43,095 nt of DNA. Origin: a virus. Numbering within the stretch: position 1 is the stretch's first letter; each line of letters starts with the position of its first letter. This document shows, one piece after another, positions 3,544-32,854 of the stretch. The position numbers and the translations under genes are program-made. The DNA lies in the UHGV virus genome UHGV-1678524; one strand, written 5' to 3'. Under the pieces are notes generated by a model. It had not been told where the DNA came from. It saw only the letters and a list, made by a program, of their open reading frames with translations, and did no database searches.

Positions 3544-4653
3544 TTAGATTTCACGTTTACGTTGAGAGATGAGTTCACCAGCAGTGCCAACGATGACATG
3601 CAAAGCTTCAGTCTTACCATCCCATGCTTTCAGCACTTTACGTTGATTATCAACGATTGCTGCAACTTCATAACGGGATGAACGCATCTTCATATCATTA
3701 TAATCAGTTGGAACAGCTACAACATCTCGTGGATGGACACGAACCTTCAGGATTGTATCACCTGAGAAGCAACGAACGTAATCCCAAGCACCAACATGAA
3801 GACCTTGAGAACAAGTTACGTTACGGTTATTATCAACCATCCAACGTGGCATCTCTACAATATTACCCAAATCATTAGGTACTTTGTAGGTGCGGGAATC
3901 AACCAGCTTGCATTCATGAGTAGAGACTTTCTTCCAGCCAATGATGTAACCTTCTTCATCAATTTCAACATCAAGGTGGGATACGAATCCCCAAAGTTGT
4001 TCTACAGAATCTTTAGATGGGTTTTCCATCAGTTTTTCGAAGAACATTACAAGTCGTTCAAAACCTTTATCACCAGTCTTCATCATATGGAGAATACGGT
4101 CAACCAGAGTAGAACGCATCTCAACAGCACCGTAGAATAACTTGTCACCTTTGATTGTGATAGCACCATGAGTGAAGTTCTCGATAGACTTACGAATGTT
4201 CATCAGTTCGAAAGCTTTCTTGTACTCACCACCTACAACAGCCATTACAATTTCTTTGTAGTTCGGATGGGTAGACTCAACGATTTCAGAATCTGCACCG
4301 AAAGTCATGATAACAGAATCGCCAGTAATCATGTACTCAATCTGGTTACCATTCTGCATAGCTTCGTGTAGTTTATTTACCGGAGCCTTTTGTACAGCCT
4401 CTTTAACAACCTTTTCAACTGGTTTTCCAGCTTTCTTTTTAACTGATTTAGCAACTTGCTTCAAAGTCTTCGTAGCTGGTTTAGAAGTTGCCTTTTTCTT
4501 ACCTTTTAAGGTTGCTTCATGACGCTCTACAGCACGACCAACTGAACGGGTTGAAGTATTGAACTTCTGTGCAATAGCTGTTTTAGTCAGCTTACCTTCT
4601 TTAACCAGTTTGTAAATTTCTGCGTCAATCTGTGCTTTAGTTTTAGTAGTCAT
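3544..4653 (-). CDS. rIIB: rIIB-like protein (N-terminal HTH-like segment, Lys-rich linker)
   Basis: Immediately downstream of the rIIA-like gene, as in T4; size and order fit. Assigned by synteny, not a diagnostic motif. Confidence 0.4.
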   Translation of the reverse strand: MTTKTKAQIDAEIYKLVKEGKLTKTAIAQKFNTSTRSVGRAVERHEATLKGKKKATSKPATKTLKQVAKSVKKKAGKPVEKVVKEAVQKAPVNKLHEAMQNGNQIEYMITGDSVIMTFGADSEIVESTHPNYKEIVMAVVGGEYKKAFELMNIRKSIENFTHGAITIKGDKLFYGAVEMRSTLVDRILHMMKTGDKGFERLVMFFEKLMENPSKDSVEQLWGFVSHLDVEIDEEGYIIGWKKVSTHECKLVDSRTYKVPNDLGNIVEMPRWMVDNNRNVTCSQGLHVGAWDYVRCFSGDTILKVRVHPRDVVAVPTDYNDMKMRSSRYEVAAIVDNQRKVLKAWDGKTEALHVIVGTAGELISQRKREI

Positions 4654-4697
4654 CTTGTTACTCTCTCTTGTTAGTTAATAAATCATTTTGTGAGGTT

Positions 4698-4727
4698 ATT
4701 CTAAGGGGCTTCAAAGCCCCTTGTCAA
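4698..4727 (-). promoter_or_regulatory. Sigma70-like promoter candidate on minus strand, with a palindrome in the spacer
   Basis: Minus strand reads TTGACA-(17-18 nt containing GGGGCTTTGAAGCCCC)-TAGAAT, about 45 nt upstream of the rIIB-like start. Confidence 0.3.
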
Positions 4728-4738
4728 ACACTTTAATC

Positions 4739-7099
4739 TTAAATTGTAGTTCCTTCTGGAACACACTTCACATCAAAGCCTAAGAACTTACTCACCTCAA
4801 TAGGTGACACTTTATTCCAATCTAAATGAGAAAGCAAGAAGTTTTCTTGTTTTCTTTTTGAAAGATAGTTTGTCACCTTGATGACCATACGGTCACCAGC
4901 TTTCTTAATTTTCTTGTACAGCTTTGTATCGTTGTCAAGGCATTCTTTCAAAGTTTGCAACCTACTAATAGTGTAAGTGTATGCAAACGGTGCAGCAACG
5001 TATTGGATTTTACCAAACATTGCCTCAACAGCATCTTCATTACCTTCTAAGAAGATAGTTTTGTTTGTGTCTCGTGAATAGCAATAACCACGAGAAATCT
5101 TCCTGTTATTGAACGTAAAGTTTCTGGCAATAATCCAACTACTTGTCAGGTCTAGGACACCATTCATATAGATACGTGTCATATACCTGTTATGATTAAT
5201 CCAGTGAACATCAGTTAAGCTGTCGTTCAAGAGCCTCTCATCTACTTCAATCCAGTCTTCTGGTATCTTTTTCCAATTTGCTTTTCGGAAAACATAGACT
5301 GTCTTTCCAATGACATTGGCAACTGACTTAGCTACATCATCTGGAGATGAGCAAAAACATTCACCATCAACAGTATCACCTACTGCCTTGATATAAATCT
5401 GAGGCTCTTCAATTGTGTCTAAGTCTTCTGACACCTCTGTGTATGAAGCTACACCTTCTGCTGGAACAGCTTTCCAGAGTTTTACAACACCTCTTACAGC
5501 TTCTTTACGTTGATAATGGTGTTCCTTATCAGACATCTTCACAATCTTTAACAAGCTTTTATCAAGTTTGTGTAGATTGATTAGGTCGTCTAACTCTTTT
5601 TCAGTCGAGAATACAAAGACAATACCATTGTATCTGTGAAACATACTTGACTCACTGGCATAGTCTCGACATGCACCACGCAAGATTTGATTGCGTCCTA
5701 CAGTCTTCTCAGTACCGTTTTTATTGCGACGGTCATTTATAACAAACAAAAACTGTTCAATTTGGCTTTTACGCATTGCGCCAAAGATATTGAACATACT
5801 TGCCTCTTGAGTGTAGGAAAGTGCTGTTGCACGAATCTTACTTTCTAAAGAGTTAAACTTAACATAAGCAACTGGGTCATAAAGATAATCTACTTTAGGG
5901 ATATTGTTTCCGTTCCTGTCAACCTTAATATTACCCTTACCATCACGTTCATAGATGACTGAGCCGTCTTCTGCGTAGATAATTCCACGACGAATGTTTA
6001 GTAATTCTTCTTCCAGAGAATCAAGCTTAACACCTCCCCACTCTAGCTTTGGACACACAGCATTAAACATCTCTCGTGAGTTCAAACGTAACTCAGCATA
6101 AGCCTGTGCAGCATCCATGAGTGTAGGTTGGTTATTAACTTTCTTGATAACATCCTTTGTAATTGCTTCAGTTATCTTTTTAGTAGCCTCAATGATAACA
6201 TTTTTTGTCGTGTCATTCATCTGCAATGCTTCACGAGAAGCTGCAATAGCAACTGAACCAATAGGCATGTAGATGTTTACAAGGTCTACGCTCCTACGGA
6301 AAAATTCTGGTAAGACTTTGAAGAAATCATCACCAAGTAATGCTTCCATATTCACTGGATAGGCAATATTACCCATCACCACATTAAACTCTGTCCTGTT
6401 AGCACCAGAACGCCAGCTTTGCTTATGAATCATGGCATCATAAACACCTTCTTCACGGGCAATGACATTCATATCTGCTAATACATCGTCATACTCGATA
6501 TTACTTTCTGGTTTTACAGCAAAGTATGAGTATACGTGACCAGCCTCTTCAAAGAACTTTGAGATACGATGGTCAGCAACTGCTACACGTACAGCTAAAC
6601 CATTAGGCTCTTTTGTTGGGTTGGTGGTCAGCTTAGTTACTTGAGGGATACCATTCTCAAGGTAAACAGAGTACTTATTAACAACACCATCAACATAGCT
6701 AGATACTGTGAATGACTGAGCAATTGCAAATGGGGATTTTGAGCCGATACCCATTGCACCAATGTAGTCATTAGAGTCATTCTTCGTAGAAGCCCCGTAG
6801 TTTAGGTACAAACTCATAACTTTATCATGAGTTAATCCAGTTCCAAAATCACGAACTTCAAAGTAAGGCTCAAAACGAGTAGGTAAATGCACATGGAACG
6901 GAATGTTCTCTTTTCCAGCCTCTTTCTGAGCATCTACTGCGTTACATGACAGTTCACGAATAACTGCCCTTTCTTTAAAGGTGTATACACCAGAACTCAA
7001 AAGGCTGAACATTTCGGGTGTCATTGTAATCTGTGCTTGAGACGTCTCTAAAGAAGTTGAACTCTTAATCACTTCTGCGTGGTCATTTACCATGCGCAT
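4739..7099 (-). CDS. rIIA: rIIA-like protein with N-terminal GHKL/Bergerat-fold ATPase domain
   Basis: 786 aa; N-box-like ERAVIRELSCNAVDA and G1-box-like VRDFGTGL; T4 rIIA has this domain. Confidence 0.6.
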   Translation of the reverse strand: MRMVNDHAEVIKSSTSLETSQAQITMTPEMFSLLSSGVYTFKERAVIRELSCNAVDAQKEAGKENIPFHVHLPTRFEPYFEVRDFGTGLTHDKVMSLYLNYGASTKNDSNDYIGAMGIGSKSPFAIAQSFTVSSYVDGVVNKYSVYLENGIPQVTKLTTNPTKEPNGLAVRVAVADHRISKFFEEAGHVYSYFAVKPESNIEYDDVLADMNVIAREEGVYDAMIHKQSWRSGANRTEFNVVMGNIAYPVNMEALLGDDFFKVLPEFFRRSVDLVNIYMPIGSVAIAASREALQMNDTTKNVIIEATKKITEAITKDVIKKVNNQPTLMDAAQAYAELRLNSREMFNAVCPKLEWGGVKLDSLEEELLNIRRGIIYAEDGSVIYERDGKGNIKVDRNGNNIPKVDYLYDPVAYVKFNSLESKIRATALSYTQEASMFNIFGAMRKSQIEQFLFVINDRRNKNGTEKTVGRNQILRGACRDYASESSMFHRYNGIVFVFSTEKELDDLINLHKLDKSLLKIVKMSDKEHHYQRKEAVRGVVKLWKAVPAEGVASYTEVSEDLDTIEEPQIYIKAVGDTVDGECFCSSPDDVAKSVANVIGKTVYVFRKANWKKIPEDWIEVDERLLNDSLTDVHWINHNRYMTRIYMNGVLDLTSSWIIARNFTFNNRKISRGYCYSRDTNKTIFLEGNEDAVEAMFGKIQYVAAPFAYTYTISRLQTLKECLDNDTKLYKKIKKAGDRMVIKVTNYLSKRKQENFLLSHLDWNKVSPIEVSKFLGFDVKCVPEGTTI

Positions 7100-7127: not shown

Positions 7128-7304
7128 TTACTTATTAAACATTTTACCAGAACCACCACATATAGGGCAACAGCCTGTTCTTGTATAACCTTCCCCATTA
7201 CAGAAGTCACATTTTTTGTGCTCTGCATAGTACTTGCAAAGAAGGTAAACGAACACTGCTACACTACCAAGTGACAGTAAAATTTCTATCCAATATGCTT
7301 GCAT
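7128..7304 (-). CDS. Small membrane protein with DnaJ-type CxxCxGxG zinc-finger-like C-terminus (58 aa, absent from ORF track)
   Basis: Manual translation: MQAYWIEILLSLGSVAVFVYLLCKYYAEHKKCDFCNGEGYTRTGCCPICGGSGKMFNK; fills the gap between rIIA-like gene and 7286-7633. Confidence 0.3.
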   Translation of the reverse strand: MQAYWIEILLSLGSVAVFVYLLCKYYAEHKKCDFCNGEGYTRTGCCPICGGSGKMFNK

Positions 7305-7633
7305 GACTCACCTCTCATATTCTTGTAAAGGATGAAGCTTCTATCATGGACGATACTTGTAGACACTGCAAAGTTACTTTCAAGTATCTGTTTGTTTGGA
7401 TTGTAGAAGCTTTCTTTAAACTCGTCAAGTGCAAATTGGTGATTGTCTGGAAGACCTTTTACACAGACCTTTATTGTAATTGCTGCTGCAACCTTGCCAG
7501 TCAGTTCTTCTTTAGCTGCTACTAAGATTTTGTTGATGAACTTATGACCATTTTCAGGCTTCTTGATGTTCTCCCATCGCTCTTCTAAGACAATATTGAT
7601 GTTCATTTCTTTGATTTTCATAATTTTCACCAA
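7286..7633 (-). CDS. Hypothetical protein
   Basis: 115-aa ORF, co-oriented. Confidence 0.35.
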   Translation of the reverse strand: MVKIMKIKEMNINIVLEERWENIKKPENGHKFINKILVAAKEELTGKVAAAITIKVCVKGLPDNHQFALDEFKESFYNPNKQILESNFAVSTSIVHDRSFILYKNMRGESCKHIG

Positions 7634-7971
7634 GTCCAGCTAACAAGTATTCCATCAAAACCTTTTGCTAAAGGTACACCCTCGTGCTCATAAAATTCAG
7701 GATTAACTTCGAATCCACGATTTTCAATATACTCTATCATGTATTTCATTACAAAGCTAATCTCTTCGTAGTCATCTGGGTCTCTGCCAAAGAACTGTTC
7801 TATGACAAACATACCTTCTTTTGTAGCAAATTGGCAGTGATGATTGTAGATACCTTCACAAAACTTTTCAAACTTTTCTTTACCGAGAACTTCAAGGATG
7901 TCTGTATAGGCAACTTGTAAGTATTTCGGTTGTACAGGTTTATTGTTAAACCATATGGAAAGGTTGTCCAT
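7627..7971 (-). CDS. Hypothetical protein
   Basis: 114-aa ORF, co-oriented. Confidence 0.35.
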   Translation of the reverse strand: MDNLSIWFNNKPVQPKYLQVAYTDILEVLGKEKFEKFCEGIYNHHCQFATKEGMFVIEQFFGRDPDDYEEISFVMKYMIEYIENRGFEVNPEFYEHEGVPLAKGFDGILVSWTW

Positions 7972-7984
7972 AGCAATCTCCAGA

Positions 7985-8012
7985 AATTAAAAAGGCTCCC
8001 GTAGGAGCCTCT
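7985..8012 (-). terminator. Hairpin plus U-tract, minus strand
   Basis: GGCTCC-cgta-GGAGCC at 7994-8009; minus transcript followed by UUUUUAAUUU; 23 nt upstream of the next start codon. Confidence 0.45.
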
Positions 8013-8024
8013 TATCATATACTT

Positions 8025-9806
8025 TTAAAGTTGCTTGTCAATATTATTTCGAATATCACCAAGAGATGTGTAACCGAACTGCTCAGAGTCACTAAAGACT
8101 AAACGTAAAGCACAAGCTGGATGTTCAAGCACATCTGCAAAGCTCTGGAATCCATAGCCATCTACAGCTTTCAGCTTATCACCATCCCACATAGGTGCTA
8201 CACCACCAAAAGCAGACTTCTTAACACCACTATCTGTTTTAGGGTCTTTTGCAAGCATAATCTCTTTACCACCAATGCTTGCCAGAGTTGCTTTGACAGC
8301 AAATGCAAAGGTGTCACGAGTCATGTACTGGTAAGTGTAAGAACCTACACCAAACACTACGTTAGAGCTTGCAAAACCCATTTCATACAAACGCTTCAGG
8401 ATTTCGTTTGCACGTTCCAACGTGATAGAGTCACCATAGATGAGGCCAATGTGCTCATCCAGTACCTTAAAGCCTTTAGAGTTGATAGTCCCTCCAAAGG
8501 TGTTATACAAGGTCTTAATAGCCCCATCAATCTCTGCTACAGGACGTGTTACAACGTTTGCAGAACCAACCATATAAGCATTTTTCAACAGCACTGTATC
8601 AGCAACTTCAAAGTCTTCTCTGTCAACAACCATCTCGTAGCCTTCTGACAGTAGCCATCCAGCAATACCATAGTTGATGTTTTCAAGCTTCATGTTCAGA
8701 ACAGCATTCAGCATTGTGTCGCTGGCTTCCAGCTTGCTTAGGTGTTCATAGTAAGCCTTTTTAGCACACTCTAAGTGGATTGCTTTATAACCTGTGACAA
8801 TATGTACAGGGTCACCAGAGTCAGGACGAATTACCAGTCTGCCGTCACGTTCCATAATCTCTTTACGAAGTGCTGGTAAGATTTCTGATACAGTTCTCCA
8901 GAAATTATAAGTATCTGAAACAATACTTACAATACCAGTTGGGTAAGTTTCTGTTAAGAATCGACGGAAGGTTTGCAACTCACCTTTAAAGCGCCTTTCT
9001 TCTTCAATCAACTCATTCCCACCTTCCCAAGCAATGTTTGCACACATGACAGAGTGTTCAGTGGCTGGTACAGAACCACCAATATCGGAAATTGGATAGG
9101 ACTGTCCATAAATGCGTTTAGCTGTATATACAGCAGGGAAGCTATCAGTCCCTTTAAAGCTGGTTAAGTGGCCTACAGCGTTAAATGCGTCATCAGTAAA
9201 GCCAGACATACCACGCATAGCAAAGTCATGGCACTGATAAGGTAAATGCAAGGCATTGTCGCAAGTAAGGTCAGCCCACTTCTTACAGATACGTTTGTAG
9301 TGCAATGCAATAGTTGCAATGGTACAAGCCTTCCAAATCTCAGCAGAGAAAGCATCTTCCAGATACCCTGCTACCCAATGGAAACCTGAAACAGTGTTCT
9401 GGAATACAATCATTGGGACACGCATAGGAACAACTGTACCTTCTTCTACAGCGTATACTTCAACTGGTAGATAACCTAAGTCGTGAAGTGCTTCCCAATG
9501 TTCTCGACCAATAGCATCTTTACCCAGAACACCGTTCATGACTTCTAAGATTTCGTCAATTGCTTCTTTTTTGTCACGTTCAAAGAAGGTGGCATTCCAG
9601 TGGTCTATCAAGTAATCTTTAACAAAACGTTGAATACCAAAAGCTACTACACCGTCAATTGCTAAAGGGCTGTTAAACCATTTATCACTACGTGGTGTCA
9701 GGTTGAACATTAGGTACTCTGTTGCACTAGGATACTGATAAATATGGCCAGATTTGTAAGCATCTGCGTTTAAACCTGCTGGTACTGCATAAAGTGATTT
9801 AGTCAT
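8025..9806 (-). CDS. Nicotinamide phosphoribosyltransferase family protein (NAMPT/NadV-like; possibly Namat-type)
   Basis: 593 aa; segments align with human NAMPT as recalled: DAYKSGHIYQYP vs DSYKVTHYKQYP, YLPVEVYAVEEGTVVP vs HLPIEIKAVPEGFVIP, SVPATEHSVM vs SVPAAEHSTI, IVSIVSDTYNFW vs VSVVSDSYDIY, VIRPDSGDP vs IIRPDSGNP. Confidence 0.75.
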   Translation of the reverse strand: MTKSLYAVPAGLNADAYKSGHIYQYPSATEYLMFNLTPRSDKWFNSPLAIDGVVAFGIQRFVKDYLIDHWNATFFERDKKEAIDEILEVMNGVLGKDAIGREHWEALHDLGYLPVEVYAVEEGTVVPMRVPMIVFQNTVSGFHWVAGYLEDAFSAEIWKACTIATIALHYKRICKKWADLTCDNALHLPYQCHDFAMRGMSGFTDDAFNAVGHLTSFKGTDSFPAVYTAKRIYGQSYPISDIGGSVPATEHSVMCANIAWEGGNELIEEERRFKGELQTFRRFLTETYPTGIVSIVSDTYNFWRTVSEILPALRKEIMERDGRLVIRPDSGDPVHIVTGYKAIHLECAKKAYYEHLSKLEASDTMLNAVLNMKLENINYGIAGWLLSEGYEMVVDREDFEVADTVLLKNAYMVGSANVVTRPVAEIDGAIKTLYNTFGGTINSKGFKVLDEHIGLIYGDSITLERANEILKRLYEMGFASSNVVFGVGSYTYQYMTRDTFAFAVKATLASIGGKEIMLAKDPKTDSGVKKSAFGGVAPMWDGDKLKAVDGYGFQSFADVLEHPACALRLVFSDSEQFGYTSLGDIRNNIDKQL

Positions 9807-9851
9807 CTTTTAATCTCTCTCAAAATGGGGCTTTGAAGCCCCTATAAAGTT

Positions 9852-10733
9852 TTAATCAATGGTTACTACAGTAACTTGGGCATAATGTGTTAATCCACGG
9901 TCTTTAGCTTCCCCTAAAGAGTTTGTAGTGTAGATATGGTCAATACCATTGTCAAGTAAGTTTTCAACACCTTTAGAGAAAATACCATGAGTTACATAGA
10001 GTTCCACACGTTTTGCACCTGCTTCACGAAGATGTTTAGCTGCTTCTATGAAGGTTCGGCCTCCATCACAAATATCATCAAGAATCATGACAGTTTTATC
10101 GGTCAAATCAACAGCATCAAGGATTCGCATACCAGTAATTTCACCAGTCTTAAGGTTGCGTACTTTAGACATTGTGATATATGGTTTATCCACCTCTTTA
10201 GCAGTCTCTTCAGTCTTCTTAGCTGCACCTGCATCTGGGGCTACCAAGAAATCAATGCGTGGGTCACTTGCAAAGTGTGCTGCTACATCTTTTTGCTTCA
10301 TGCTCTGAAAGCACTTAAATAAGTTTTCTGCAACATTACTGTGAGGGTCAAGAGCACATACTGCATCAAAACCCATTGCATTAACGAGGTTGGCAAAAGC
10401 TTTCAGTGCTGCTGAATCACCTTTGAACATATGGCGGTCATATCGAGCATTCGGTAAGAACCCGAAAACAACGGTTTTCATCGCTGATTTGTATGGAACA
10501 AGGCTGTCAACGGCATCCTTAGCCAAAGCTAATGCAAACAGTGTATCTTTATCATACCCCTGCACAGTCAATATAACATTGTCAATCTTACCAGCATTAC
10601 GCTCAGTAAACTTAACAAAATCTTCAGAGAAGTTTCCACCAATTTCTCCAGATGGGAATTGGGTGATATTAAATTTTTCTGTGTGGAAGAATTTCTCTTG
10701 TGCGGTGACAACGGCTTCAATAATAGTTTTCAT
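9852..10733 (-). CDS. Ribose-phosphate pyrophosphokinase family protein (Prs-like; possibly Adps-type ADPR pyrophosphokinase)
   Basis: 293 aa; FPSGEIGG N-terminal motif, LDPHS, and PRPP-binding-loop-like DDICDGGRT. Confidence 0.7.
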   Translation of the reverse strand: MKTIIEAVVTAQEKFFHTEKFNITQFPSGEIGGNFSEDFVKFTERNAGKIDNVILTVQGYDKDTLFALALAKDAVDSLVPYKSAMKTVVFGFLPNARYDRHMFKGDSAALKAFANLVNAMGFDAVCALDPHSNVAENLFKCFQSMKQKDVAAHFASDPRIDFLVAPDAGAAKKTEETAKEVDKPYITMSKVRNLKTGEITGMRILDAVDLTDKTVMILDDICDGGRTFIEAAKHLREAGAKRVELYVTHGIFSKGVENLLDNGIDHIYTTNSLGEAKDRGLTHYAQVTVVTID

Positions 10734-10744
10734 AGCTCTCTCTC

Positions 10745-11050
10745 TTAATCAAAAGTTACGTTTGTTACTGCCATTGCAGATTTGCATTTTGCAGGGTCTA
10801 CAACGTGATAAAGTACACTACAGTTGCCTGTGCTATCTGGTACAGGTTTAACCCATTGTTGCTTGACAGTTGGTTCTCCTAAGTCTTTGTAAGAGCCATC
10901 TGTAAAATTGTTTACCATCTCAAGTGCAATTGGTTCTGGAACATGACCTCGTATCATGTACATTTCACAACCATTGCCACCCTCACTGACTAGTGGTAAA
11001 ATCTCCCACTTCTCTTTAGCCATTGTAAGTTGCCCTATAAACTGTCTCAA
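10745..11050 (-). CDS. Hypothetical protein
   Basis: 101-aa ORF, co-oriented. Confidence 0.35.
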   Translation of the reverse strand: MRQFIGQLTMAKEKWEILPLVSEGGNGCEMYMIRGHVPEPIALEMVNNFTDGSYKDLGEPTVKQQWVKPVPDSTGNCSVLYHVVDPAKCKSAMAVTNVTFD

Positions 11051-11531
11051 ACTTCAACAGGAGAGATATTGCCAAATCTGTATAGTTGTTGTCAAGCACA
11101 TCTGGCATATTATTTTTGATATATTTCTCTTGCTCTTCATAGGTCATCTTAGGGATGCTTAGGAGTCTATCTCCTTGCTTCTGGTTATCAGCTTTAGTTT
11201 GGATAAACCAGTTCGCACAGTGATGCTCACCACCTTTTGTAACAGGTTTATGGTGACCTAATGTGAAGGACTGGTTACCTGTGTATCTGCAAAGCTTATT
11301 GAGTACTGCAATAGTGTTCTTCACAACAAAACATTCATACATGTTATCTATGGTGTAGTGTGGGTAATATTGGAATAGTGCTCTTTCACGGGTACTATCA
11401 CGATTCCAGAGAATCATGTGATTTGAGTTAGAAGGGTCGTATTGGTGGGAGTCAATGAACTCTTGACGTTCCTCGAAGCTGAGTCTTAGAACTGACATTG
11501 CAGCAGAACGTTTTAGATTCGACAGATACAT
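11016..11531 (-). CDS. Hypothetical protein
   Basis: 171-aa ORF; start may be an internal Met given overlap with the upstream gene. Confidence 0.35.
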   Translation of the reverse strand: MYLSNLKRSAAMSVLRLSFEERQEFIDSHQYDPSNSNHMILWNRDSTRERALFQYYPHYTIDNMYECFVVKNTIAVLNKLCRYTGNQSFTLGHHKPVTKGGEHHCANWFIQTKADNQKQGDRLLSIPKMTYEEQEKYIKNNMPDVLDNNYTDLAISLLLKFETVYRATYNG

Positions 11532-11582
11532 ATTATCTCCAAAATAAAAAGGGAACCTTTACAGTCCCCTTATAGTATCTGT

Positions 11583-12406: not shown

Positions 12407-12892
12407 CTACTCTGCTCGCCATTGACAGTCGCCTTGCCATCCATACTCTTTTCTCCAAAGGTTTTGGTTATCAGAACCACGATAAGGTTTAACTGTTGGT
12501 TTAGAAGCATCATACTTACCGTCAACTACCACGTCAACATATTTCATCACATCTAGGTGGATTTTTTCGTGCAGTTGAAAACCTGTCCAAAGCCATATAG
12601 ACTTTTCTGGATAAACAGTTTTAATACGCTTGCATATGTTGGTAACCTCTTGAATGTTTCTATCATCCAGAGGCTCCCCACCAAGTATTGATAGCCCACT
12701 AATGGCCTTATCATCCATTAACTTAATGATGCCGTAGAGGTTTGCATAAGTAAACTCTTTACCAGCATTAAACTTCCAAGACTCCCTGTTAAAGCAGCCT
12801 TCACAGTGATGCTTGCAACCAGCTACGAAGAGGCTTACACGAACCCCTTCACCATTAGCTGTGTCAAATGGTCTAATCTCCATGTAATTCAT
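12407..12892 (-). CDS. nrdG: Anaerobic ribonucleotide reductase activating protein (radical SAM)
   Basis: 161 aa; CKHHCEGC radical-SAM cysteine cluster near N-terminus; adjacent to nrdD. Confidence 0.7.
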   Translation of the reverse strand: MNYMEIRPFDTANGEGVRVSLFVAGCKHHCEGCFNRESWKFNAGKEFTYANLYGIIKLMDDKAISGLSILGGEPLDDRNIQEVTNICKRIKTVYPEKSIWLWTGFQLHEKIHLDVMKYVDVVVDGKYDASKPTVKPYRGSDNQNLWRKEYGWQGDCQWRAE

Positions 12893-13698: not shown

Positions 13699-14646
13699 TT
13701 ACATAGAAACTCTGTCACGAATCTCAGCGATTTTTGCATCATTCATTCGTGATTCACCTTTAATCTTAGTCCAGCCAAGATAACCACACACCCTGTTAAT
13801 CACAGAGATATCATGTGAATGGCAAACCTCACATTCTTCAACATCAGCCTTTGGCCTGTTACCACAATGCTCACAGATTGCTAAGTCAAAGTTAAGTCCC
13901 TGATAAAAACCCTTCAACATCCCTCTGGTAATACAACTTTTAAGTGCTGTTAAGTTTTCTGGGTTAGCTACCCTTACATACTGGATTCTGCCACCTCTAC
14001 AGATATGGAAGAATGGTTCTTCTAAGTCCTGCTTCTCAAATGGTGAGATGTTTGCTGCAACATTCATATGGAAACTGTTTGTAAAGTATTCCTTGTCAGA
14101 AACGCCTTTGATAACACCAAACATATCTCTGAACTGTTTTAGCTGAGTTCCACACAATGACTCTGCTGGAGTACCATATACCGCATACAAGAAGCCATCC
14201 TCATTCTTAAACTCTTCAGTTTTCATGTTAATGTATGCCAGAACATCGTATGCAAAACTAGAGCTTCCAACTTCATGAAGTCGTTTACCCTCAGTAAGAA
14301 CAGATAACTCATCAAGCGCAGTAACCCCAAAAGAAGCTGTGAAGGACTTCACGATATCCCAACCAACCTTGTCGGTGGATTTTTTAGTTCCTTTGTACAG
14401 ACCACCTTGTGTGAATGCAAGAGGGTTAGAACTTGCTGGCATATTAGCAATCATTTCGTAGCGTTTCTTGTGGAAGCTGCGAATCATCTCTAGGTACTTA
14501 TCAAGCTCTTTCCAGAAATCTAAGCCATTCTCTTTGGTGTACTGATAAATCATTGGTAAGTTCAAAGATACAGCACCAATGTTAGCACGACCTACATAAA
14601 ACTCTTCACCATGTTCGTTATGGTATGGTGATAAAAATGCTCTACA
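13699..14646 (-). CDS. nrdD: Anaerobic ribonucleoside-triphosphate reductase, exon 2 (C-terminal part with Zn ribbon and glycyl-radical motif)
   Basis: CEHCG...CEVCHSH and RVCGYLG near the C-terminus; the M in the ORF track is a TTG artefact, with an in-frame stop just upstream at 14668-14670. Confidence 0.7.
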   Translation of the reverse strand, partial: CRAFLSPYHNEHGEEFYVGRANIGAVSLNLPMIYQYTKENGLDFWKELDKYLEMIRSFHKKRYEMIANMPASSNPLAFTQGGLYKGTKKSTDKVGWDIVKSFTASFGVTALDELSVLTEGKRLHEVGSSSFAYDVLAYINMKTEEFKNEDGFLYAVYGTPAESLCGTQLKQFRDMFGVIKGVSDKEYFTNSFHMNVAANISPFEKQDLEEPFFHICRGGRIQYVRVANPENLTALKSCITRGMLKGFYQGLNFDLAICEHCGNRPKADVEECEVCHSHDISVINRVCGYLGWTKIKGESRMNDAKIAEIRDRVSM

Positions 14647-14962
14647 CTTGTTGTTCAAGTAAGTTCGCTAAGCTTACCCCGCTTTATTCAAGCTGCTTAC
14701 TGTCGCCAGTAAGTCCAGACTATATCTTCTACTTATTTCTAAGTAGCGTACCATTTCGAGTCGCTTGACCCTACACCGCTACATTCATCACGGTTAGTCG
14801 TTCGGCATTTAGATGTACTCAAACTTATATTCGAAGTTGTTTGGCATGTAAGACTCCTATGTTGTATAGTTTCTTACATCATACATCATTTAGCACAGGA
14901 TTGTCTACATCTGTAGAGTTTCCCTGTTTAGGCACGTTTTAGATGAGCTATAGAGCTTGTTA
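14647..14962 (-). ncRNA. Group I self-splicing intron in nrdD, ORF-less (about 316 nt)
   Basis: Interrupts a conserved gene; minus strand contains AAGAUAUAGUC (S element, plus 14718-14728) and CGACUAACCG (R-like, plus 14791-14800); exon 1 ends in U, GCUCAU guide candidate in the intron, intron ends in G; in-frame join ...VISPMG|CRAFLSPY... Confidence 0.65.
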
Positions 14963-16159
14963 ACCCATCGGTGAAATAACCTTGCCAGAACGCTCAAAAG
15001 CCTCTGCTACAGCACCATGACCAGATACACTTAAGAAATCTGGATACATCGCTTTAGAGCAACACTCAATGGCTTTACTATACAGGTGTCCTTGACAGAT
15101 ATTCTCATCGTGTCTCTTCTGGTCATAAATATAAACCAGTTTAGGGAATACAACAGGCTTCTTGCTCTTACCTTGTCCATTCATACGAACATCTAGGAGA
15201 GTACTTGCAATCATATATTGCAGTCGGTTATCTTCATTGGACATATCTGAATCAAGTAACCCGAATGTCAAAGTTGTAAATGCAAAATCCCCACGACTAC
15301 AAGGTACAGTGTTTAGTTTCATTTCAAGTGACTGGAAACCTTGAGTCAGTTCAATCTGTAGCTGCTCCATGACATAATTGTGGTAATGTTCTTTAGGAAT
15401 ACCATAAGATGCTGCTTTCTCAGCATGATAGCGTAGAGACTTCTTAGCATACGGCACAAGTACCTTATCAATCTCTGCTAAAGTAAAACCGCCAAATTGC
15501 TGTGCAGTTGCTGAAAGAACTACGTCACCAATAACCTGTAAGGCCGACAGCACAGACTTTGGTTCACAATATTCGATGCCAGACATTTCAAAGCCACCTT
15601 TCAGGACTTTACCAATGTCAAACAGGCAACAGTTGATACCACCAAAAATTAGGTCTCTTAAATCATGGATATAGATAAATCCTTTTTCAATGGCTTCAAG
15701 TTCCTCTGGTGTTAAATGGTACTGTTTAAAGATTTCTTTAGTCAGGTAACCACGAATAATTGAACCTTTTGTAGAAATTAAACTGCTGTCAAAGTTAGCA
15801 TTTTCACGGTCACCTAAGAAGAGTGTGTCTCTAGTCTTTTGGTAAAGCTCATCCCAATTTTGAGCAACTTCTTTACGGTAATTTCTATATGTTGAATAAG
15901 ACTCATAAATCTCGTGATTGACTTCTGCCAAAGCACCCTCAACAATACTGTGAATATCATTTACAGAAATCAGCAAATTATTCTGCTTAGTGGACTTTAC
16001 CAGAATCCTCATAAATGCTGACTCAAGAGCTTGGGTAACATCTGGTGGGAGTTCTTTATATCCAACCCTGTTAGCTGACTTAGTTACTGCTGCTAAAACT
16101 TTTTTGATATCAGGTTCTTCAAGTGAGCCATTCTTTTTAATAATCTGTACTTTGTTCAT
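14963..16159 (-). CDS. nrdD: Anaerobic ribonucleoside-triphosphate reductase, exon 1 (N-terminal ATP-cone and catalytic part)
   Basis: N-terminus MNKVQIIKKNGSLEEPDIKKV is ATP-cone-like; ORF runs into the intron and stops at 14960-14962. Confidence 0.7.
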
Positions 16160-27065: not shown

Positions 27066-27809
27066 TTAAATCTTCAGGATAGCTCTTAGCTTGCTCTCAA
27101 GGTCTGCAAGAGTACCATTATTATGAATAATGTCACGCTCATATTTTGTAGAAATTCCATTCTCTGAAACATGTGACGAAACTTTGTCCACATTGTCTCT
27201 TTTTACTTCAATGGTTTGGTGTGCAAATCTACTCAGCCACTCAGCTTCAGAGTCAAATCTTAAATCACTGATTAAAACAACACCTTCTTGGTTTCTAAGT
27301 GAGCAAACATCAAAGAAATTTACCATTCGTTTTTCGAGGTCTTTAGCCCAGAACTTGTCACCCATAACTTTACGGATGACTTCAGTGCCCCAAATCTGTT
27401 GAATTTGTCTTGATGAGAATTTATACTTTTTGCTAAACCCCAGACGTGTCAATAGAGTCGGTTTAGCAACCTTCTTAAGCTCCATGATTAAGCGTCCTGT
27501 CAATTCCGACATAAGCTTAAAATCCATATGGTAACGCTCACCTTTGAAGGTAAACTCCATAGCTTCTGTAACTTTGAACATCAGTTCAGGATATGATAAG
27601 TCAAAAACCTGTGGAGTCTCTTTAGTTTCACCATACAGGTCATTCCAAGTTAGGTCAAATATCCTTGATGCAGATAGCTTAAGGTTGTCTGCATAGGCCA
27701 TTACCGCAACATTGTAGCCGTACTCATCCTCTAAGATGTTCTTCACAATCGAACATGAGGTGTCTTTTCCAGAGCGTGCCTTTCCAGTAAATGCAATAAT
27801 ATTACTCAT
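27066..27809 (-). CDS. Deoxynucleoside monophosphate kinase-like P-loop kinase
   Basis: N-terminus IIAFTGKARSGKDT resembles T4 gp1 dNMP kinase LIFLSGVKRSGKDT. Confidence 0.55.
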   Translation of the reverse strand: MSNIIAFTGKARSGKDTSCSIVKNILEDEYGYNVAVMAYADNLKLSASRIFDLTWNDLYGETKETPQVFDLSYPELMFKVTEAMEFTFKGERYHMDFKLMSELTGRLIMELKKVAKPTLLTRLGFSKKYKFSSRQIQQIWGTEVIRKVMGDKFWAKDLEKRMVNFFDVCSLRNQEGVVLISDLRFDSEAEWLSRFAHQTIEVKRDNVDKVSSHVSENGISTKYERDIIHNNGTLADLESKLRAILKI

Positions 27810-29095: not shown

Positions 29096-29352
29096 GTAAG
29101 CCTCTTTTAAGTAACTATTAAGTTTTAATCTTTTATCTTAACGTATTCTATACGTTATACTTTAAAGCTTTTTAAAAGCTATTAAATAATCTTTTAAGAG
29201 TTTTAAAGTATCTGTATAGTTAAACTGTTAAGTAACCTTTTAAGTAAAAACCCACTTCGCAAAGATTAACACCTTGTCAAGTACATTGTCAACTTGCTTT
29301 TTATAATTTTTTGCAGTAATGTATGAGGTTAATGATTTTAGAGGGAGTAAAA
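29096..29352. promoter_or_regulatory. AT-rich divergent intergenic region (probable bidirectional promoter region)
   Basis: 257-nt AT-rich spacer between divergently oriented blocks; minus strand has tandem TTGACA hexamers (GTTGACAATGTACTTGACAAGG); RBS GAGGGAG precedes the polymerase ATG at 29353. Confidence 0.35.
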
Positions 29353-31495
29353 ATGGAAAACGTAGATTTTAAAAACTTACATTTGGTTGGTGATACAGAA
29401 ACTGATGGTTTACTCCTTGAGTTCACTAAAGTGCACGTAATGGCTTTCGCAGACTATAAATCTGACGATGAAGAGCCACCTGTATGGGTCTTTACAGATG
29501 AACCTATCCTCGGTCACAAGTATACCAAGTACATTAAGGGTGGCTTACGTGAAGGTGTTGAATTTGCGTTAAAGGCAAAACGTCTTTGCATCCATAACGG
29601 TCTCGGTTATGACTGGTGGGTTTTTAATCACATTGCACCTGATTTATGGAACTTTGATAATCCAAAGTGTAAGCCGTGGAGTAATTTCTTTCAGGATTCT
29701 CTTATCCAGTCTCGTGTTCAGTGGATGGATAGACCAACTCCAAAGGGTTATAAAGGTGCTCATGGCTTGGCTGCATGGGGTGCTCGTGTTGGTGTTCGTA
29801 AGCCAGAGATTGAGCATTGGGGTGTGTGGAATGCAGAAATCTTCACTCGTGTTGTAGAAGATATTCGTATTAACGCCAAAACTAAACGGGCACTTGATAA
29901 CGAGTATCTCAAGCTTAAGAAGTGTGGTATAGACACTTATGAAACCTACATGCGAGCTAAAGAAACATCTTTCTGGATGAGTCAACAGGCTATCAATGGT
30001 TGGAAAGCTGATAAAGAACTTATGGAGTTCCATGTAAAGGAACTTGACAAGTTGACTAATGAGCTTGCTTCAGAGGTTGAACCACATCTACCTCCAACTA
30101 TTAAGACCAAAGGTAAAGTCACTGGAGAAGAGTTTGCAAAAGCTTGGAATGAGTATGTTGAAACATTCGGTCATGCAGATGGACTGAAGAGAATTACCAA
30201 GTACCCTAAGACAAAGTATCGTCAACAGGTGCGTAACGGTGAGATGCAGACATACGAAATCAAGCCATTTGGTAAGCCAACTACAAAGATTTTTAACATT
30301 GAAAAGAGAAATTGCTATACACCAACCAACTCTGTAACTGGTGAAGAGTACAAGGAAGGTTTTGTAGCAATGAAGGATGCTCGTGCAATTTGCAACGAGT
30401 TGAATGCAAAGATTGGTAAGAAATGCAAAGACTGGAAGCCAGTAAAAACAGTTAAGACTGTGAAGTACTATAACAGCCATGTTGTTAACCACTTTGAGCT
30501 TGAGTCAAGTCGCTACACAGGTTTGATTGATGCACCATATACACCAATTGAGTTCGAAGTTTCTCGTATGACTCAGGTAGCAGTTGTTAAAGACTACTTG
30601 AAATCAGTTGGTTGGATTCCAGATGACTGGAACTACAAGAAAGACTCAGATGGTCGTCCTGTTAAGGTTTGTCGTTTCAAAGACAACAAAAAGATGATTA
30701 CCAAGCATCCTAAGTGGCAGGAGATGGTTGAACGGTGTGGTTTGAGTTATGTTGAACATGAAGGTGTCCAGTACATTGAGCATAACTGGTCTGTGAAGAA
30801 GTACACAGATTTGCTTGAGCCTTGCTTAATCCGTACTTCACCAAAACTTACTGAATCATCTTATGATACGATTGAAGGTGAGCTTGGACAGAAGATTGCT
30901 AAGTACTATACTTTGATGCACCGACGTAGAACTATTGAGAACTCAAAAGATGATGAAAAAGGTTGGTTGAACCAGATTCGTCCTGATGGTCGCCTTAGTG
31001 CTGGTGCAATGGTGTTTGGTACTTCAACTGGACGTATGACACAATATGGTATTGTAAACGTACCGTCTGGTGCTGCTGTCTATGGAGCACCTATGAGGGA
31101 AGTTTGGACTTGTGAAGAAGGTACTAATATTGTTTCAGCCGACATGAATAGCGCCCAACTTGTGCTACTGTGTAACTTTATGGGTGATAAAGATTTCACT
31201 AAAGCAGTGACGGAGGGTAAAGAAGAGGTTGAGTTTGTCAAACAAGAGGATGGTAGATACTATTGCAAACATTTTGACCAGTATCTAAACCCAGCTATTG
31301 ACAAGTATTTACATTATGATTCTGAAAATGACTTATACGTGGTGTACTCAGGGACTGATGCACATACTTTGAATAGTATCTACTTCAGTCTTAATAAAGA
31401 GGAAGACATCTTGACATGTCGAGCTACTCAGGATACAAACCTTCTTCAAGAAATTAGTAAAGGTCGTAAGAAAGCCAAAAATGGCATCTATGCGT
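29353..31495 (+). CDS. DNA polymerase, family A (T7-like), exon 1: 3'-5' exonuclease domain and polymerase domain through the first half of motif B
   Basis: Start at MENVDFK (RBS GAGGGAG upstream). Exo I motif LVGDTETDG; motif A-like SADMNSAQLVLL; ends inside motif B (RKKAKNGIYA). Confidence 0.75.
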
Positions 31496-32297
31496 CAGTG
31501 GCGCATGTAAAACGTTGTGAATTGCTGGAAGCCTAAGTCTGTAAAGATATGGTAATCAGCAGCGAAGTCTCTGTTAGGACTCCTAAAACAAAGGAGAGAG
31601 ACAATGGCAGGTTACGAAGAGAGATTATGCACTGAGTGTGGTACGGAGTTTAAACCATATCAATACAATCAGAAACGGTGCAGAAGTTGTGTATTAAAGT
31701 TTGACAGAAGGGCAGAACACAGGGTTCTTACTAAGAAATGTCCTAGTTGTGAGAAGGTGTTCATGCCGAGAACAGCAAGGCAAGTTTATTGTTCGTCACA
31801 TTGCGGTGAGAAAGGTAGAGTTAAGAATTACTCCCTAAGAACATATGGATTGGAAAGAGAAGAGGTTGAGGCTCTACTCCGTGACTGTGATTACAAATGT
31901 CAAATTTGTGGCGGTGAAGGTTTTATCATGAATGGTTCACGACACAAGGCTAAACTTGTTGTTGACCATGACCATAAAACCGGAAAGGTAAGAGGTATGT
32001 TATGCCACAATTGCAACAGAGCTTTGGGGTTGCTTGCAGATAGTGTTGATAACATGCAAAGAGCAATTGACTATCTAAGTAAATGATATAACTATAGAGA
32101 TTCCTAACAGAGAAACGTTCAGAGACTATCGAAAAGCATACTTAACGTATGAACTGAGTAGAGTAGGGTGGTAAGCTAATGACCATCCCCAAGTGCAACG
32201 GTAGCATCACTGCTACGTGATATAGTCCGACACTCCGTAGAAATGCGGAGAAGTTCATAAGAGAACTGGTACACCTTGCGAGTGTATTGACCAGATG
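31496..32297 (+). mobile_element. Group I intron in the DNA polymerase gene, carrying an HNH endonuclease ORF
   Basis: GUUCAGAGACUA (R, 32117-32128) and GAUAUAGUCC (S, 32219-32228); exon ends in U, intron guide GCGCAU (31501-31506) pairs with exon end AUGCGU; intron ends in G at 32297; in-frame join KNGIYA|LLFGAGDEK restores motif B (cf. T7 AKTFIYGFLYGAGDEK). Confidence 0.7.
31604..32086 (+). CDS. HNH (His-Me finger) homing endonuclease encoded within the polymerase intron
   Basis: 160 aa; several CxxC pairs; C-terminal VVDHDHKTGKVRGMLCHNCNRALG is a classic HNH motif. Confidence 0.75.
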   Translation: MAGYEERLCTECGTEFKPYQYNQKRCRSCVLKFDRRAEHRVLTKKCPSCEKVFMPRTARQVYCSSHCGEKGRVKNYSLRTYGLEREEVEALLRDCDYKCQICGGEGFIMNGSRHKAKLVVDHDHKTGKVRGMLCHNCNRALGLLADSVDNMQRAIDYLSK

Positions 32298-32854
32298 TAT
32301 TGTTCGGGGCTGGCGATGAGAAATTTGCTAAGACGATTAAAGCATCTACAACTGAGGAAGGCGCTTTAACTAAGCAAACATACTTTGTACGTCTCCCTAA
32401 AATTAAGAAGTTGATAGATAATTTAGAAGCAGACTTCAAAGCCACTAAGAAGGCTCTTGAAGAGGTATTTGGTAAGACCGCCGCAATCTCTAAAGGGGGG
32501 TTTGTAAAGGTTGCTGGAGCTTGGTTGTGGTGTAAATCTCCACATAAGTTATTGAATTATTTGCTTATGGGTTCGGAAAGTCAGGTTCAGAATGAAGCCA
32601 TCAACCTCGCTTGTAGAAGAACTTGTGAAGAGGGTCTTACAAAGTTGAATGGTCGAAAACCAGCTATTGGCGCTAGATTGCTTTTAGCATATCACGATGA
32701 GAATAGTTGGGAGTGTCCAGAAGACATGACACAGGATGTTAAAGCAGTAATTGACTGGATGTATGGTCAAGCATCAAGAAATTTAGGGCTTAAGGAGGAA
32801 ACGCTTGTAACTGGTACTGGTAAAGTTGGTAAAAATTGGCTTGAAGTACACTGA
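32298..32854 (+). CDS. DNA polymerase, family A, exon 2 (second half of motif B, motif C, C-terminus)
   Basis: LFGAGDEKFAKT completes motif B; LLAYHDENSWE is motif C-like; C-terminal VGKNWLEVH resembles Pol I-family C-termini. Confidence 0.75.

Follow-up and report, generated by a model that had tools for sequence, protein, structure and literature searches.

The stretch of viral DNA UHGV-1678524 (43,095 nucleotides, hereafter the window) carries a Prs-family gene beside a NAMPT-family gene, and the question that this locus raises is whether the two encode an ordinary salvage route or NAD+ reconstitution pathway 1 (NARP1), in which an ADP-ribose pyrophosphate synthetase (Adps) and a nicotinamide ADP-ribose transferase (Namat) rebuild NAD+. 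The NARP1 interpretation is correct, and the system is an already known one; the pair is very probably the NARP1 of a Felixounavirus, orthologous to gp79-gp80 of Escherichia phage JohannRWettstein (Bas63). The first-pass annotation, which had proposed a NARP1-type Adps/Namat module, was thus right. Both proteins align without gaps to their Bas63 counterparts, with identities of 95% (279/293 residues, Adps against gp79) and 98% (580/593 residues, Namat against gp80).

The gene pair and its surroundings

The window is a segment of a Felixounavirus genome, and 22.8 kb of it is colinear with Bas63 at nucleotide identities of 93-96%. The neighbours of the pair likewise match Bas63 (gp77-, gp78- and gp81-83-like genes, rIIA/rIIB and nrdG). 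The list of open reading frames (ORFs) bears out exactly the coordinates, lengths, adjacency and co-orientation given by the first-pass annotation, which did not state the strand. As both ORFs lie on the minus strand (Table 1), transcription passes through the Prs-like gene before it reaches the NAMPT-like gene. Among Adps-clade genes, 97% adjoin a co-oriented Namat homologue, and the same arrangement is found here, with adps upstream, on the same strand and 45 nt away from namat.

Table 1. Positions of the features of the NARP1 locus in the window
Feature	Position	Strand	Remarks
adps, ADP-ribose pyrophosphate synthetase (Prs-family), 293 aa	9852..10733	-	first NARP1 gene
Adps Lys190 codon	10164..10166	-	equivalent to SPβL1 K162; MSK190VRN opposite SPβL1 GHK162QRN
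adps-namat spacer, 45 nt	9807..9851	-	hairpin, short U-tract, GAGAGAG ribosome-binding region of namat
Spacer palindrome	9827-9842	+ (reading)	GGGGCTTTGAAGCCCC
namat, nicotinamide ADP-ribose transferase (NAMPT-family), 593 aa	8025..9806	-	second NARP1 gene
Selectivity-clamp loop (SCL), Namat residues 39-44	9675..9692	-	RSDKWF, with Lys42-Trp43; aligned to SPβL1 R37-T-S-R40
Insertion A, Namat residues ~258-272	8991..9035	-	gap opposite SPβL1 Namat
Insertion B, Namat residues ~343-427, ~85 aa	8526..8780	-	lineage-specific α/β subdomain
Selectivity-clamp helix (SCH) signature, Namat residues 488-498	8313..8345	-	GSYTYQYMTRD
gp78-like ORF	10745-11023		beside pair
gp81/82-like ORFs	7627-7971 and 7286-7633		beside pair
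Terminator-like hairpin upstream	11549..11571	-	terminator scan
Intrinsic-terminator-like hairpin directly 3' of namat	7990..8013	-	AAGAGGCUCC-UACG-GGAGCCUUUU, then UAAUUU; terminator scan

The terminator-like hairpin upstream bounds a stretch that holds the gp77-like, gp78-like, adps and namat genes, and the equivalent site carries a terminator annotation in phage AYO145A. The hairpin 3' of namat (fold -17.4 kcal/mol, z -2.4) is identical in Bas63. A sigma-70-type scan for an operon promoter returned 27 weak sites against a chance expectation of 12.9, none of them convincing. The small ORFs that flank the pair encode 92-115 aa. One of them, the gp78-like ORF, was considered as a third NARP1 component and rejected for lack of evidence: its product is found only in Ounavirinae, in the same phages as the NARP1 pair, it matches no family in Pfam or PHROG, and the literature reports no phenotype for it.

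The 45-nt spacer with a palindrome, noted in the first-pass annotation, was recovered between the two genes. As mRNA, the palindrome reads GGGGCU-UCAA-AGCCCC followed by AUUUU, and its fold is modest (z = -1.8). Between Felixounavirus, Mooglevirus and Suspvirus the loop and flanks change but the stem does not; with both of its arms identical in 7/7 phages compared, covariation support is unobtainable. In phage AYO145A this hairpin is annotated as a rho-independent terminator, and in phage BPS15Q2 an HNH endonuclease gene sits between adps and namat. The spacer hairpin is a conserved element, for which attenuator, terminator and stabiliser are candidate roles.

Adps and Namat compared with cellular enzymes

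By family, Adps matches PF00156 and PF14572 as well as PHROG 619 ("ribose-phosphate pyrophosphokinase", E 3e-98), and it reaches the TIGR01251 subfamily with 134.6 bits against a 113-bit cut-off. It nevertheless falls below the cut-off of every NCBIfam Prs equivalog model, scoring 110.8 against 296 bits for NF002095 and 75.5 against 438 for NF002844, with still lower scores for the remaining models. To the characterised Adps of phage SPβL1 it is 33% identical over 196 aligned residues, and at equal database size this match scores 80 bits, against at most 67 for any solved Prs. By these scores Adps stands apart from the cellular Prs clade, its place in the Adps clade following from the 95% identity to Bas63 gp79. 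The catalytic flexible-loop lysine of the Prs-family fold is kept as K190. In place of the Prs 5-phosphate loop, which reads DDxxDTxGT, Adps has DDICDGGRT. In SPβL1 Adps, mutation of the equivalent lysine (K162A) abolished NAD+ synthesis (Osterman preprint), and SPβL1 Adps yielded no measurable product in an assay of Prs activity. No solved Adps structure was found in the PDB copy searched, where the best matches are ordinary Prs enzymes, or in a literature search. From its homologues, Adps is expected to catalyse the ATP-dependent pyrophosphorylation of ADP-ribose, and not of ribose-5-phosphate.

Namat matches PF04095 (E 2.4e-34), PF18127 and PHROG 448 ("nicotinamide phosphoribosyl transferase", E 3.6e-202). 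Its top sequence match in the PDB is SPβL1 Namat (9W5W/9W5X, E 5e-127), compared with 1e-41 to 3e-52 for NAMPTs, and its AF2 model (pLDDT 91.9) finds its best structural match in 9W5X, with a TM of 0.95. The profile and structure comparison that the first-pass annotation had proposed thus places Namat nearest SPβL1 Namat and not a NAMPT, and Adps nearer to SPβL1 Adps than to Prs. The NAMPT-like catalytic core is complete, comprising the partner-protomer Asp/Tyr, Phe-x-x-Arg, Asp, the catalytic His, Arg-x-Asp and Gly-Asp. The residues concerned (D15, Y17, F195, R198, D221, H251, R327, D329, G458 and D459) are invariant in a 32-sequence alignment, in which the core aligns to D13, Y15, F189, R192, D215, R306, D308, G360 and D361 of SPβL1.

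The selectivity clamp sets Namat apart from NAMPTs. The SCH motif has been defined as GS-X-Φ1-X-Φ2-X-Φ3-TRD, in which aromatic X residues serve adenine stacking and Φ3 is mainly Asn or Val (PMC12774641). The signature in Namat fits this motif with Met as Φ3. Motif positions 3 and 5 are aromatic in 30/31 aligned homologues, and position 7 is so in 26/31. The counterparts in NAMPTs differ, reading GGALLQKVDRD in Xanthomonas and GAQTYQRNTRD in H. ducreyi NadV. The SCL of Namats supplies either an Arg, or a Lys/Tyr followed by a stacking residue, and where Lys occupies the third position it is the next residue that stacks adenine, "e.g. Bas63 Namat". The RSDK42W43F loop fits the latter pattern and is identical in Bas63 and the window. 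It had been supposed that sequence alone could not separate Adps/Namat from Prs/NAMPT; the presence of this clamp signature in Namat, and the distance of Adps below the Prs cut-offs, overturn that view. By its likeness to the homologues, Namat probably prefers ADPR-PP over PRPP and yields NAD+.

That Namat exceeds cellular NAMPT by about 100 aa, as noted at first reading, is accurate (593 aa against 477-503 aa for NAMPT chains in the PDB). The suggestion that these residues reflect altered substrate use has not stood, since SPβL1 Namat has ADPR-PP activity at 491 aa and without them, and the extra length is consequently not the basis of the substrate switch. It consists of two insertions, A and B, which are Ounavirinae-specific and missing from SPβL1 Namat. 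At the site of insertion A, phage Namats vary, with 7 to 45 aa across homologues. Insertion B is predicted by the AF2 model to be a compact, autonomous and confidently folded α/β subdomain, for which searches detected neither a sequence-family nor a fold relative, and it is not discussed in the published structural paper on Namat.

Proposed mechanism and alternative readings

According to the proposed mechanism, NAD+-depleting host defences (SIR2-HerA/Nezha, Thoeris, DSR1/2, SEFIR and similar systems) would break NAD+ down to ADP-ribose and nicotinamide. With ATP as its second substrate, Adps would then attach a pyrophosphate to the terminal ribose of ADP-ribose and so form ADPR-PP, and Namat would exchange the pyrophosphate for nicotinamide, forming NAD+ directly. 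The adenine-stacking clamp of Namat (the Lys42-Trp43 loop together with Tyr490 and Tyr494 of the SCH signature) would favour ADPR-PP over PRPP.

The genetic basis for this scheme comes from Bas63 itself, as NARP1 (Adps + Namat) was defined by deleting its gp79-80 operon, which renders the phage sensitive to SIR2-HerA; ADPR-PP appears only when wild-type phage and the defence system are combined, and the anti-defence effect is still seen in a ΔpncCΔnadR host, and is hence independent of host pncC and nadR (Osterman et al. 2024). A separate knockout screen also found that Bas63 g79 and g80 counter Sir2-HerA. The in vitro chemistry has been shown only for homologues from SPβL1, DyoEdafos and Paenibacillus foliorum. 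The Adps result comes from the SPβL1 and DyoEdafos enzymes only, and the evidence that Namat prefers ADPR-PP and yields NAD+ is confined to the enzymes of SPβL1, P. foliorum and DyoEdafos; the SPβL1 homologues were used because the Bas63 protein purified poorly. None of the 27 substitutions that separate the window pair from Bas63 falls at a catalytic or clamp residue (0/27), and the enzymes of the window are expected to act as those of Bas63 and the homologues do.

A canonical salvage route would instead have a PRPP synthetase and a NAMPT supply NMN, from which host NadR/PncC would make NAD+, as a general metabolic boost. The names of the Pfam, PHROG and NCBIfam models, all Prs and NAMPT/NAPRT, agree with such a route, as do those given in nearly all of 252 related phage records, and Namat homologues do make NMN from PRPP in vitro; since they retain this activity, Namat of the window may possess some of it too. 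The route is nonetheless highly improbable as the function of the pair, in view of the fact that Bas63, with near-identical genes, beats SIR2-HerA in the ΔpncCΔnadR host and makes ADPR-PP, that no product could be measured when SPβL1 Adps was assayed as a Prs, that Adps of the window reaches 111 bits against the 296-bit cut-off of the nearest Prs equivalog, and that the adenine clamp signature of Namat is absent from NAMPTs. There is equally little reason to expect an extended or alternative pathway, be it NARP1-AP (which beats aRES), RyDEP-assisted NARP1 or NARP2. In NARP1-AP, a Macro-domain protein acts as an ADPR-1''-phosphate phosphatase, and RyDEP is a RyR-domain glycosidase that feeds cADPR signals into NARP1. 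Such variants are known in other phages, and small uncharacterised ORFs lie beside the pair on both sides; these ORFs are however short for a Macro domain, and the gp78-like protein is limited to Ounavirinae. Pfam searches returned no match to Macro (PF01661/PF14519/PF20016), RyR (PF02026), NMNAT or Nudix families among the two genes on either side (E <= 0.01) or among the ORFs of 120 aa or more across the 43-kb window. The lack of an NMNAT, Nudix, Macro or RyR partner indicates plain NARP1, and not NARP2 or an extended form.

Within plain NARP1, insertion B might add a lineage-specific function, such as regulation or allosteric control, docking to Adps (which could channel labile ADPR-PP) or to some other partner, or escape from a host inhibitor or other countermeasure. 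Its retention across the Ounavirinae as well as in remoter relatives 590-610 aa long, and the compact subdomain that is predicted with confidence, are consistent with this notion. Yet insertion B diverges faster than the rest of Namat: its identity in Mooglevirus and related Ounavirinae is 45-55%, whereas that of the complete protein is about 75%. In other Namats, unrelated insertions of widely differing length occupy this site, which is what one would expect of a surface loop that tolerates change, and the enterobacterial homologues of 496 aa have a 19-residue linker there. Searches returned neither a fold nor a family match, and homologues without insertion B perform NARP1. An added function is accordingly unlikely, if somewhat less so than either of the other pathways, and the role of this subdomain is the only, minor, new question that the locus poses.

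Meaning and relation to known systems

The Felixounavirus pair is an anti-defence module for escape from immune systems that deplete NAD+, SIR2-HerA and Thoeris among them. The value of recognising it lies in annotation, as the old names persist in almost every one of the ~250 related GenBank records and in the Pfam, PHROG and NCBIfam models. These labels read "ribose-phosphate pyrophosphokinase" and "nicotinamide/nicotinate phosphoribosyltransferase". For host-range prediction in phage therapy, the literature leads one to expect that a phage with this module resists canonical NADase defences. Because a Macro-domain phosphatase is lacking, sensitivity to aRES is predicted: ADPR-1''-phosphate should be of no use to the phage, which would stay sensitive to that defence.

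The closest known system is the NARP1 of Bas63 (bas63_0079-0080, GenBank MZ501086), which shares with the window its gene order, protein lengths of 293/593 aa, 45-nt hairpin spacer and downstream terminator. The two differ by 14 (Adps) and 13 (Namat) conservative substitutions, with no structural differences. The NARP1 of the Bacillus phage SPβL1 (Adps WIT26982, Namat WIT26983; 9W5W/9W5X) has the same gene order, catalytic Adps lysine and Namat core, at identities of 33% for Adps and about 43% for Namat. Its SCH signature is GSFTYQYNTRD as opposed to GSYTYQYMTRD, and its SCL uses Arg40 where Namat of the window has Lys42-Trp43. In SPβL1 the two genes adjoin directly, with no spacer hairpin between them, and its 491-aa Namat is devoid of both insertions. 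The Adps/Namat core is also common to NARP1-AP, which adds the Macro-domain phosphatase Adpp (e.g., Vibrio phage Gary), and to the RyDEP-associated NARP1 of mycobacteriophage DyoEdafos; unlike these forms, the window has no Macro or RyR gene in or beside the operon. NARP2 (NadV NAMPT and NatV NMNAT/Nudix, Vibrio phage KVP40) and cellular Prs + NAMPT draw on the same superfamilies, with the PRPP-synthetase and type II phosphoribosyltransferase folds, and on the same nicotinamide-attachment chemistry. In contrast to the window, NARP2 includes an NMNAT partner, and NAMPTs do not carry the clamp signature. Whereas NARP2 and cellular salvage take R5P/PRPP to NMN, NARP1 takes ADP-ribose/ADPR-PP directly to NAD+.

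Identity of the gene pair and its published counterpart

The first-pass annotation described a 593-aa NAMPT-family gene (namat) beside a 293-aa Prs-family gene (adps), and an ORF call finds both exactly at the places and lengths claimed. Both lie on the minus strand, which had not been specified, and adps is therefore first in the direction of transcription. The family claims agree with Pfam: the 593-aa protein matches NAPRTase (PF04095, E 2.4e-34) and NAMPT_N (PF18127), and the 293-aa protein matches Pribosyltran (PF00156) and Pribosyl_synth (PF14572). They also match PHROG 448, "nicotinamide phosphoribosyl transferase" (E 3.6e-202), and PHROG 619, "ribose-phosphate pyrophosphokinase" (E 3e-98), respectively.

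NAD+ reconstitution pathway 1 (NARP1) was discovered in the BASEL phage Bas63 (JohannRWettstein), a Felixounavirus, as "operon 79-80" (10.1101/2024.02.11.579819). In the Bas63 reference used here (GenBank MZ501086, positions 40000-87100; L001), bas63_0079 and bas63_0080 encode 293 and 593 aa and are separated by 45 nt, an architecture identical to that of the window. Window Adps is identical to gp79 at 279/293 positions (95%) and window Namat to gp80 at 580/593 (98%), both gap-free, and none of the 14 Adps and 13 Namat substitutions affects a catalytic or clamp residue. The window aligns colinearly with Bas63 from position 1 to 22789 (93-96% nucleotide identity), and the spacer hairpin, the terminator downstream and the upstream homologues of gp77 and gp78 are all kept.

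Bas63 lacking genes 79-80 plates ~20-fold lower on SIR2-HerA cells, with NAD+ collapse, and protection is still present in a ΔpncCΔnadR host, indicating that NMN is not the product (10.1101/2024.02.11.579819). ADPR-pyrophosphate (ADPR-PP, m/z 720.010) was seen only in wild-type phage infection of defence-system cells. Because the Bas63 protein "did not purify well", the chemistry was worked out on homologues from the Bacillus phage SPβL1, in which Adps converts ADPR and ATP to ADPR-PP, without measurable product in a Prs-activity assay, and Namat converts ADPR-PP and nicotinamide to NAD+. SPβL1 Namat can form NMN from PRPP, and when both donors are supplied yields NAD+ only; the mutants K162A (Adps) and R306G (Namat) abolish the pathway. 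Genes of the Adps clade adjoin a Namat gene in 97% of cases, and NARP1 is found in 859 phage genomes (4.3%) (10.1101/2024.02.11.579819). In an independent genome-wide Bas63 knockout study, g79 and g80 individually counteracted Sir2-HerA (plating drop 10^4-10^6), with a weaker effect on the Ec86 retron and hhe.

Namat and Adps compared with the cellular enzymes

The differences between Namat and NAMPT are defined by the 2026 structures of SPβL1 Namat (PDB 9W5W and 9W5X): the two share a catalytic core, to which Namat adds an adenine "selectivity clamp" consisting of a loop (SCL) and a helix (SCH) with the signature GS-X-Φ1-X-Φ2-X-Φ3-TRD, X being aromatic (PMC12774641). Window Namat carries this signature at residues 488-498 (GSYTYQYMTRD), as does SPβL1 Namat (GSFTYQYNTRD), whereas true NAMPTs differ (GGALLQKVDRD in Xanthomonas, GAQTYQRNTRD in Haemophilus ducreyi NadV). 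Its SCL, R-S-D-K42-W43-F, is identical to that of Bas63, in which the third position is described as Lys and the next residue stacks on adenine (PMC12774641). The conserved core is present as D15, Y17, F195, R198, D221, H251, R327, D329 and G458-D459. Among PDB sequences, the top match is SPβL1 Namat (E 5e-127), ahead of H. ducreyi NadV (1e-103) and the Xanthomonas, human and rodent NAMPTs (3e-52 to 1e-41). An AlphaFold2 model (alignment of 32 sequences; pLDDT 91.9, pTM 0.90) fits 9W5X best (E 2e-54, target TM 0.95), followed by HdNadV and then mammalian NAMPT. In both sequence and fold, SPβL1 Namat is the nearest of the solved structures.

The ~100 aa by which this protein exceeds cellular NAMPT had been taken as a possible sign of altered substrate use, a reading that does not hold, since the 491-aa SPβL1 Namat, which lacks this extra length, is active on ADPR-PP. 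Relative to it, window Namat has insertions of ~14 aa (residues 258-272) and ~85 aa (residues 343-427), and lengths among phage Namats are 7-45 aa at the first site and 14-99 aa at the second. The ~85-aa insertion occurs in Ounavirinae-type phages only (254 records) and has changed more quickly than the remainder of the protein (Mooglevirus and related Ounavirinae keep 45-55% identity in it, versus ~75% for the whole protein).

Chromosomal "nicotinate phosphoribosyltransferases" of ~496 aa in Klebsiella, Cronobacter, Kosakonia, Citrobacter and Erwinia (P0064-P0120) are 47-50% identical to window Namat and have a Namat-type SCH, GS[YF]TYQYNTRD. These may represent NARP1 copies of bacteria or of prophages, which would accord with the report of a bacterial NARP1 in Paenibacillus.

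A PDB search found no solved Adps structure for comparison. At equal database size, window Adps reaches 80 bits with SPβL1 Adps and no more than 67 bits with any of the solved Prs enzymes, and its K190 aligns with the catalytic K162 of SPβL1. Among Prs models, only the broad TIGR01251 subfamily passed; every Prs equivalog cut-off was missed by a wide margin (best 110.8 versus 296 bits), as is also the case for SPβL1 Adps. Felixounavirus Adps proteins fall into two allele classes, with 95-99% or about 77% identity to window Adps, beside a Namat that is steady at 97-98% (in Alf5, Namat 97%, Adps 76.5%), a pattern that implies a putative recombination boundary within the operon.

Operon structure and neighbourhood

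Features of the adps-namat region and of other window loci
Feature	Position	Strand	Remarks
rIIB	3544-4653	minus	
rIIA	4739-7099	minus	
Canonical terminator after namat	8013-7990	minus	terminator scan
Sigma-70-type promoter-like site	8014-8041	minus	TTGACA-16-TATGAT, near-consensus, 11/12 matches
namat	8025-9806	minus	593 aa; ORF call
adps-namat spacer	9807-9851		45 nt
adps	9852-10733	minus	293 aa; ORF call
gp78-like ORF	10745-11023	minus	92 aa; 99% identical to Bas63 gp78; PHROG 4726, function unknown
gp77 homologue	11016-11531	minus	95% identical to Bas63 gp77; two genes upstream of adps
Second terminator	11571-11549	minus	terminator scan
nrdG	12407-12892		
nrdD			split by group I intron
Group I intron in nrdD	14696-15070	minus	Rfam RF00028, 53.8 bits (gathering score 50 bits)
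dNMP kinase	27066-27809	minus	Pfam DNMK PF21448, E 2e-21
737-aa ORF	29323-31536	plus	no Pfam match
Endonuclease VII-domain ORF	31604-32086	plus	
184-aa ORF	32300-32854	plus	matches C-terminal part only of DNA_pol_A profile

The palindrome noted earlier in the 45-nt spacer is indeed there (16 nt, 9827-9842). On the mRNA strand it folds into the hairpin GGGGCU-UCAA-AGCCCC; AUUUU and a GAGAGAG ribosome-binding region come after it. The stem is invariant in 7/7 phages of three genera (Felixounavirus, Mooglevirus and Suspvirus), so covariation is not assessable, and the loop (UCAA, UGAA, GAAA) and flanks vary. Its U-tract is short (UUUU or CUUU), with a fold z-score of -1.8 for the hairpin. Plausible candidate roles are partial attenuation or mRNA stabilisation between adps and namat; the AYO145A record annotates it as a rho-independent terminator. 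Salmonella phage BPS15Q2 has an HNH endonuclease gene between the two genes (L003 2097-2588; window equivalent 9807-9851), and in at least one relative the spacer is thus a site where a mobile endonuclease gene has inserted. HNH endonucleases also appear, as presence only, among the features listed for VpaE1, SME50 and other records matched by the 2.7-kb region.

Between the two terminators lie four genes: gp77-like, gp78-like, adps and namat. The gp78-like ORF ends 11 nt upstream of adps, and its protein is found in Ounavirinae only (231 records). The promoter-like site overlaps the namat 3' end and reaches the terminator hairpin; the gp81-83-like genes downstream may be under its control, and AYO145A has an annotated promoter at the equivalent place.

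A nucleotide search with the 2.7-kb adps-namat region matched 252 phage records (top identity 97.5%), almost all from Felixounavirus and related Ounavirinae with Escherichia, Salmonella, Shigella and Citrobacter as hosts. By Pfam and PHROG, the neighbourhood is of the Felix O1-like type, with further window genes for nrdB, nrdA, primase-helicase, DNA ligase, DHFR, thymidylate synthase and tail fibres. The intron in nrdD (anaerobic ribonucleotide reductase) sits between ORFs 13699-14658 and 14960-16159; at this position Bas63 has ~425 bp more, overlapping the homing-endonuclease ORF bas63_0068, a stretch missing from the window (alignment break 14840/14841). The DNA polymerase A region (29323-32854) also looks interrupted.

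Bas63 gp77 reportedly counters the Ec67 retron, and g84 and g85, annotated rIIA/rIIB, reportedly counter QatABCD (PhageMaP preprint). Homologues of all three lie near adps-namat (rIIA/rIIB at 3544-7099), and NARP1 thus sits within a cluster of anti-defence genes. The NAD+-depleting system Kongming (KomABC) is reportedly triggered by a phage deoxynucleotide kinase and is neutralised by SPβL1 NARP1 (PMC12774641); with its dNMP kinase, the window phage may therefore carry both trigger and counter-measure.

The NARP variant and its relation to known systems

Later work has extended the pathway: NARP1-AP includes an operon Macro-domain ADPR-1''-phosphate phosphatase required to beat aRES, RyR-domain glycosidases feed cADPR signals into NARP1, and NARP2 pairs NAMPT with an NMNAT/Nudix enzyme. 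No Macro, RyR, NMNAT or Nudix Pfam match was found in the four flanking ORFs or in 28 larger ORFs elsewhere in the window, and on gene content the system is therefore a plain two-gene NARP1. As such, it would be expected to leave the phage open to aRES.

The proposal that the pair is a NARP1-type module is supported by the 95-98% identity to the deleted and characterised Bas63 genes and by the clamp signature, and the database labels Prs and NAMPT/NAPRT call for correction. The evidence supports upgrading the pair from a candidate to an orthologue of the founding example. The system itself is not new: the mechanism has been published, and two groups have deleted and characterised the same genes in a phage that is 95-98% identical.
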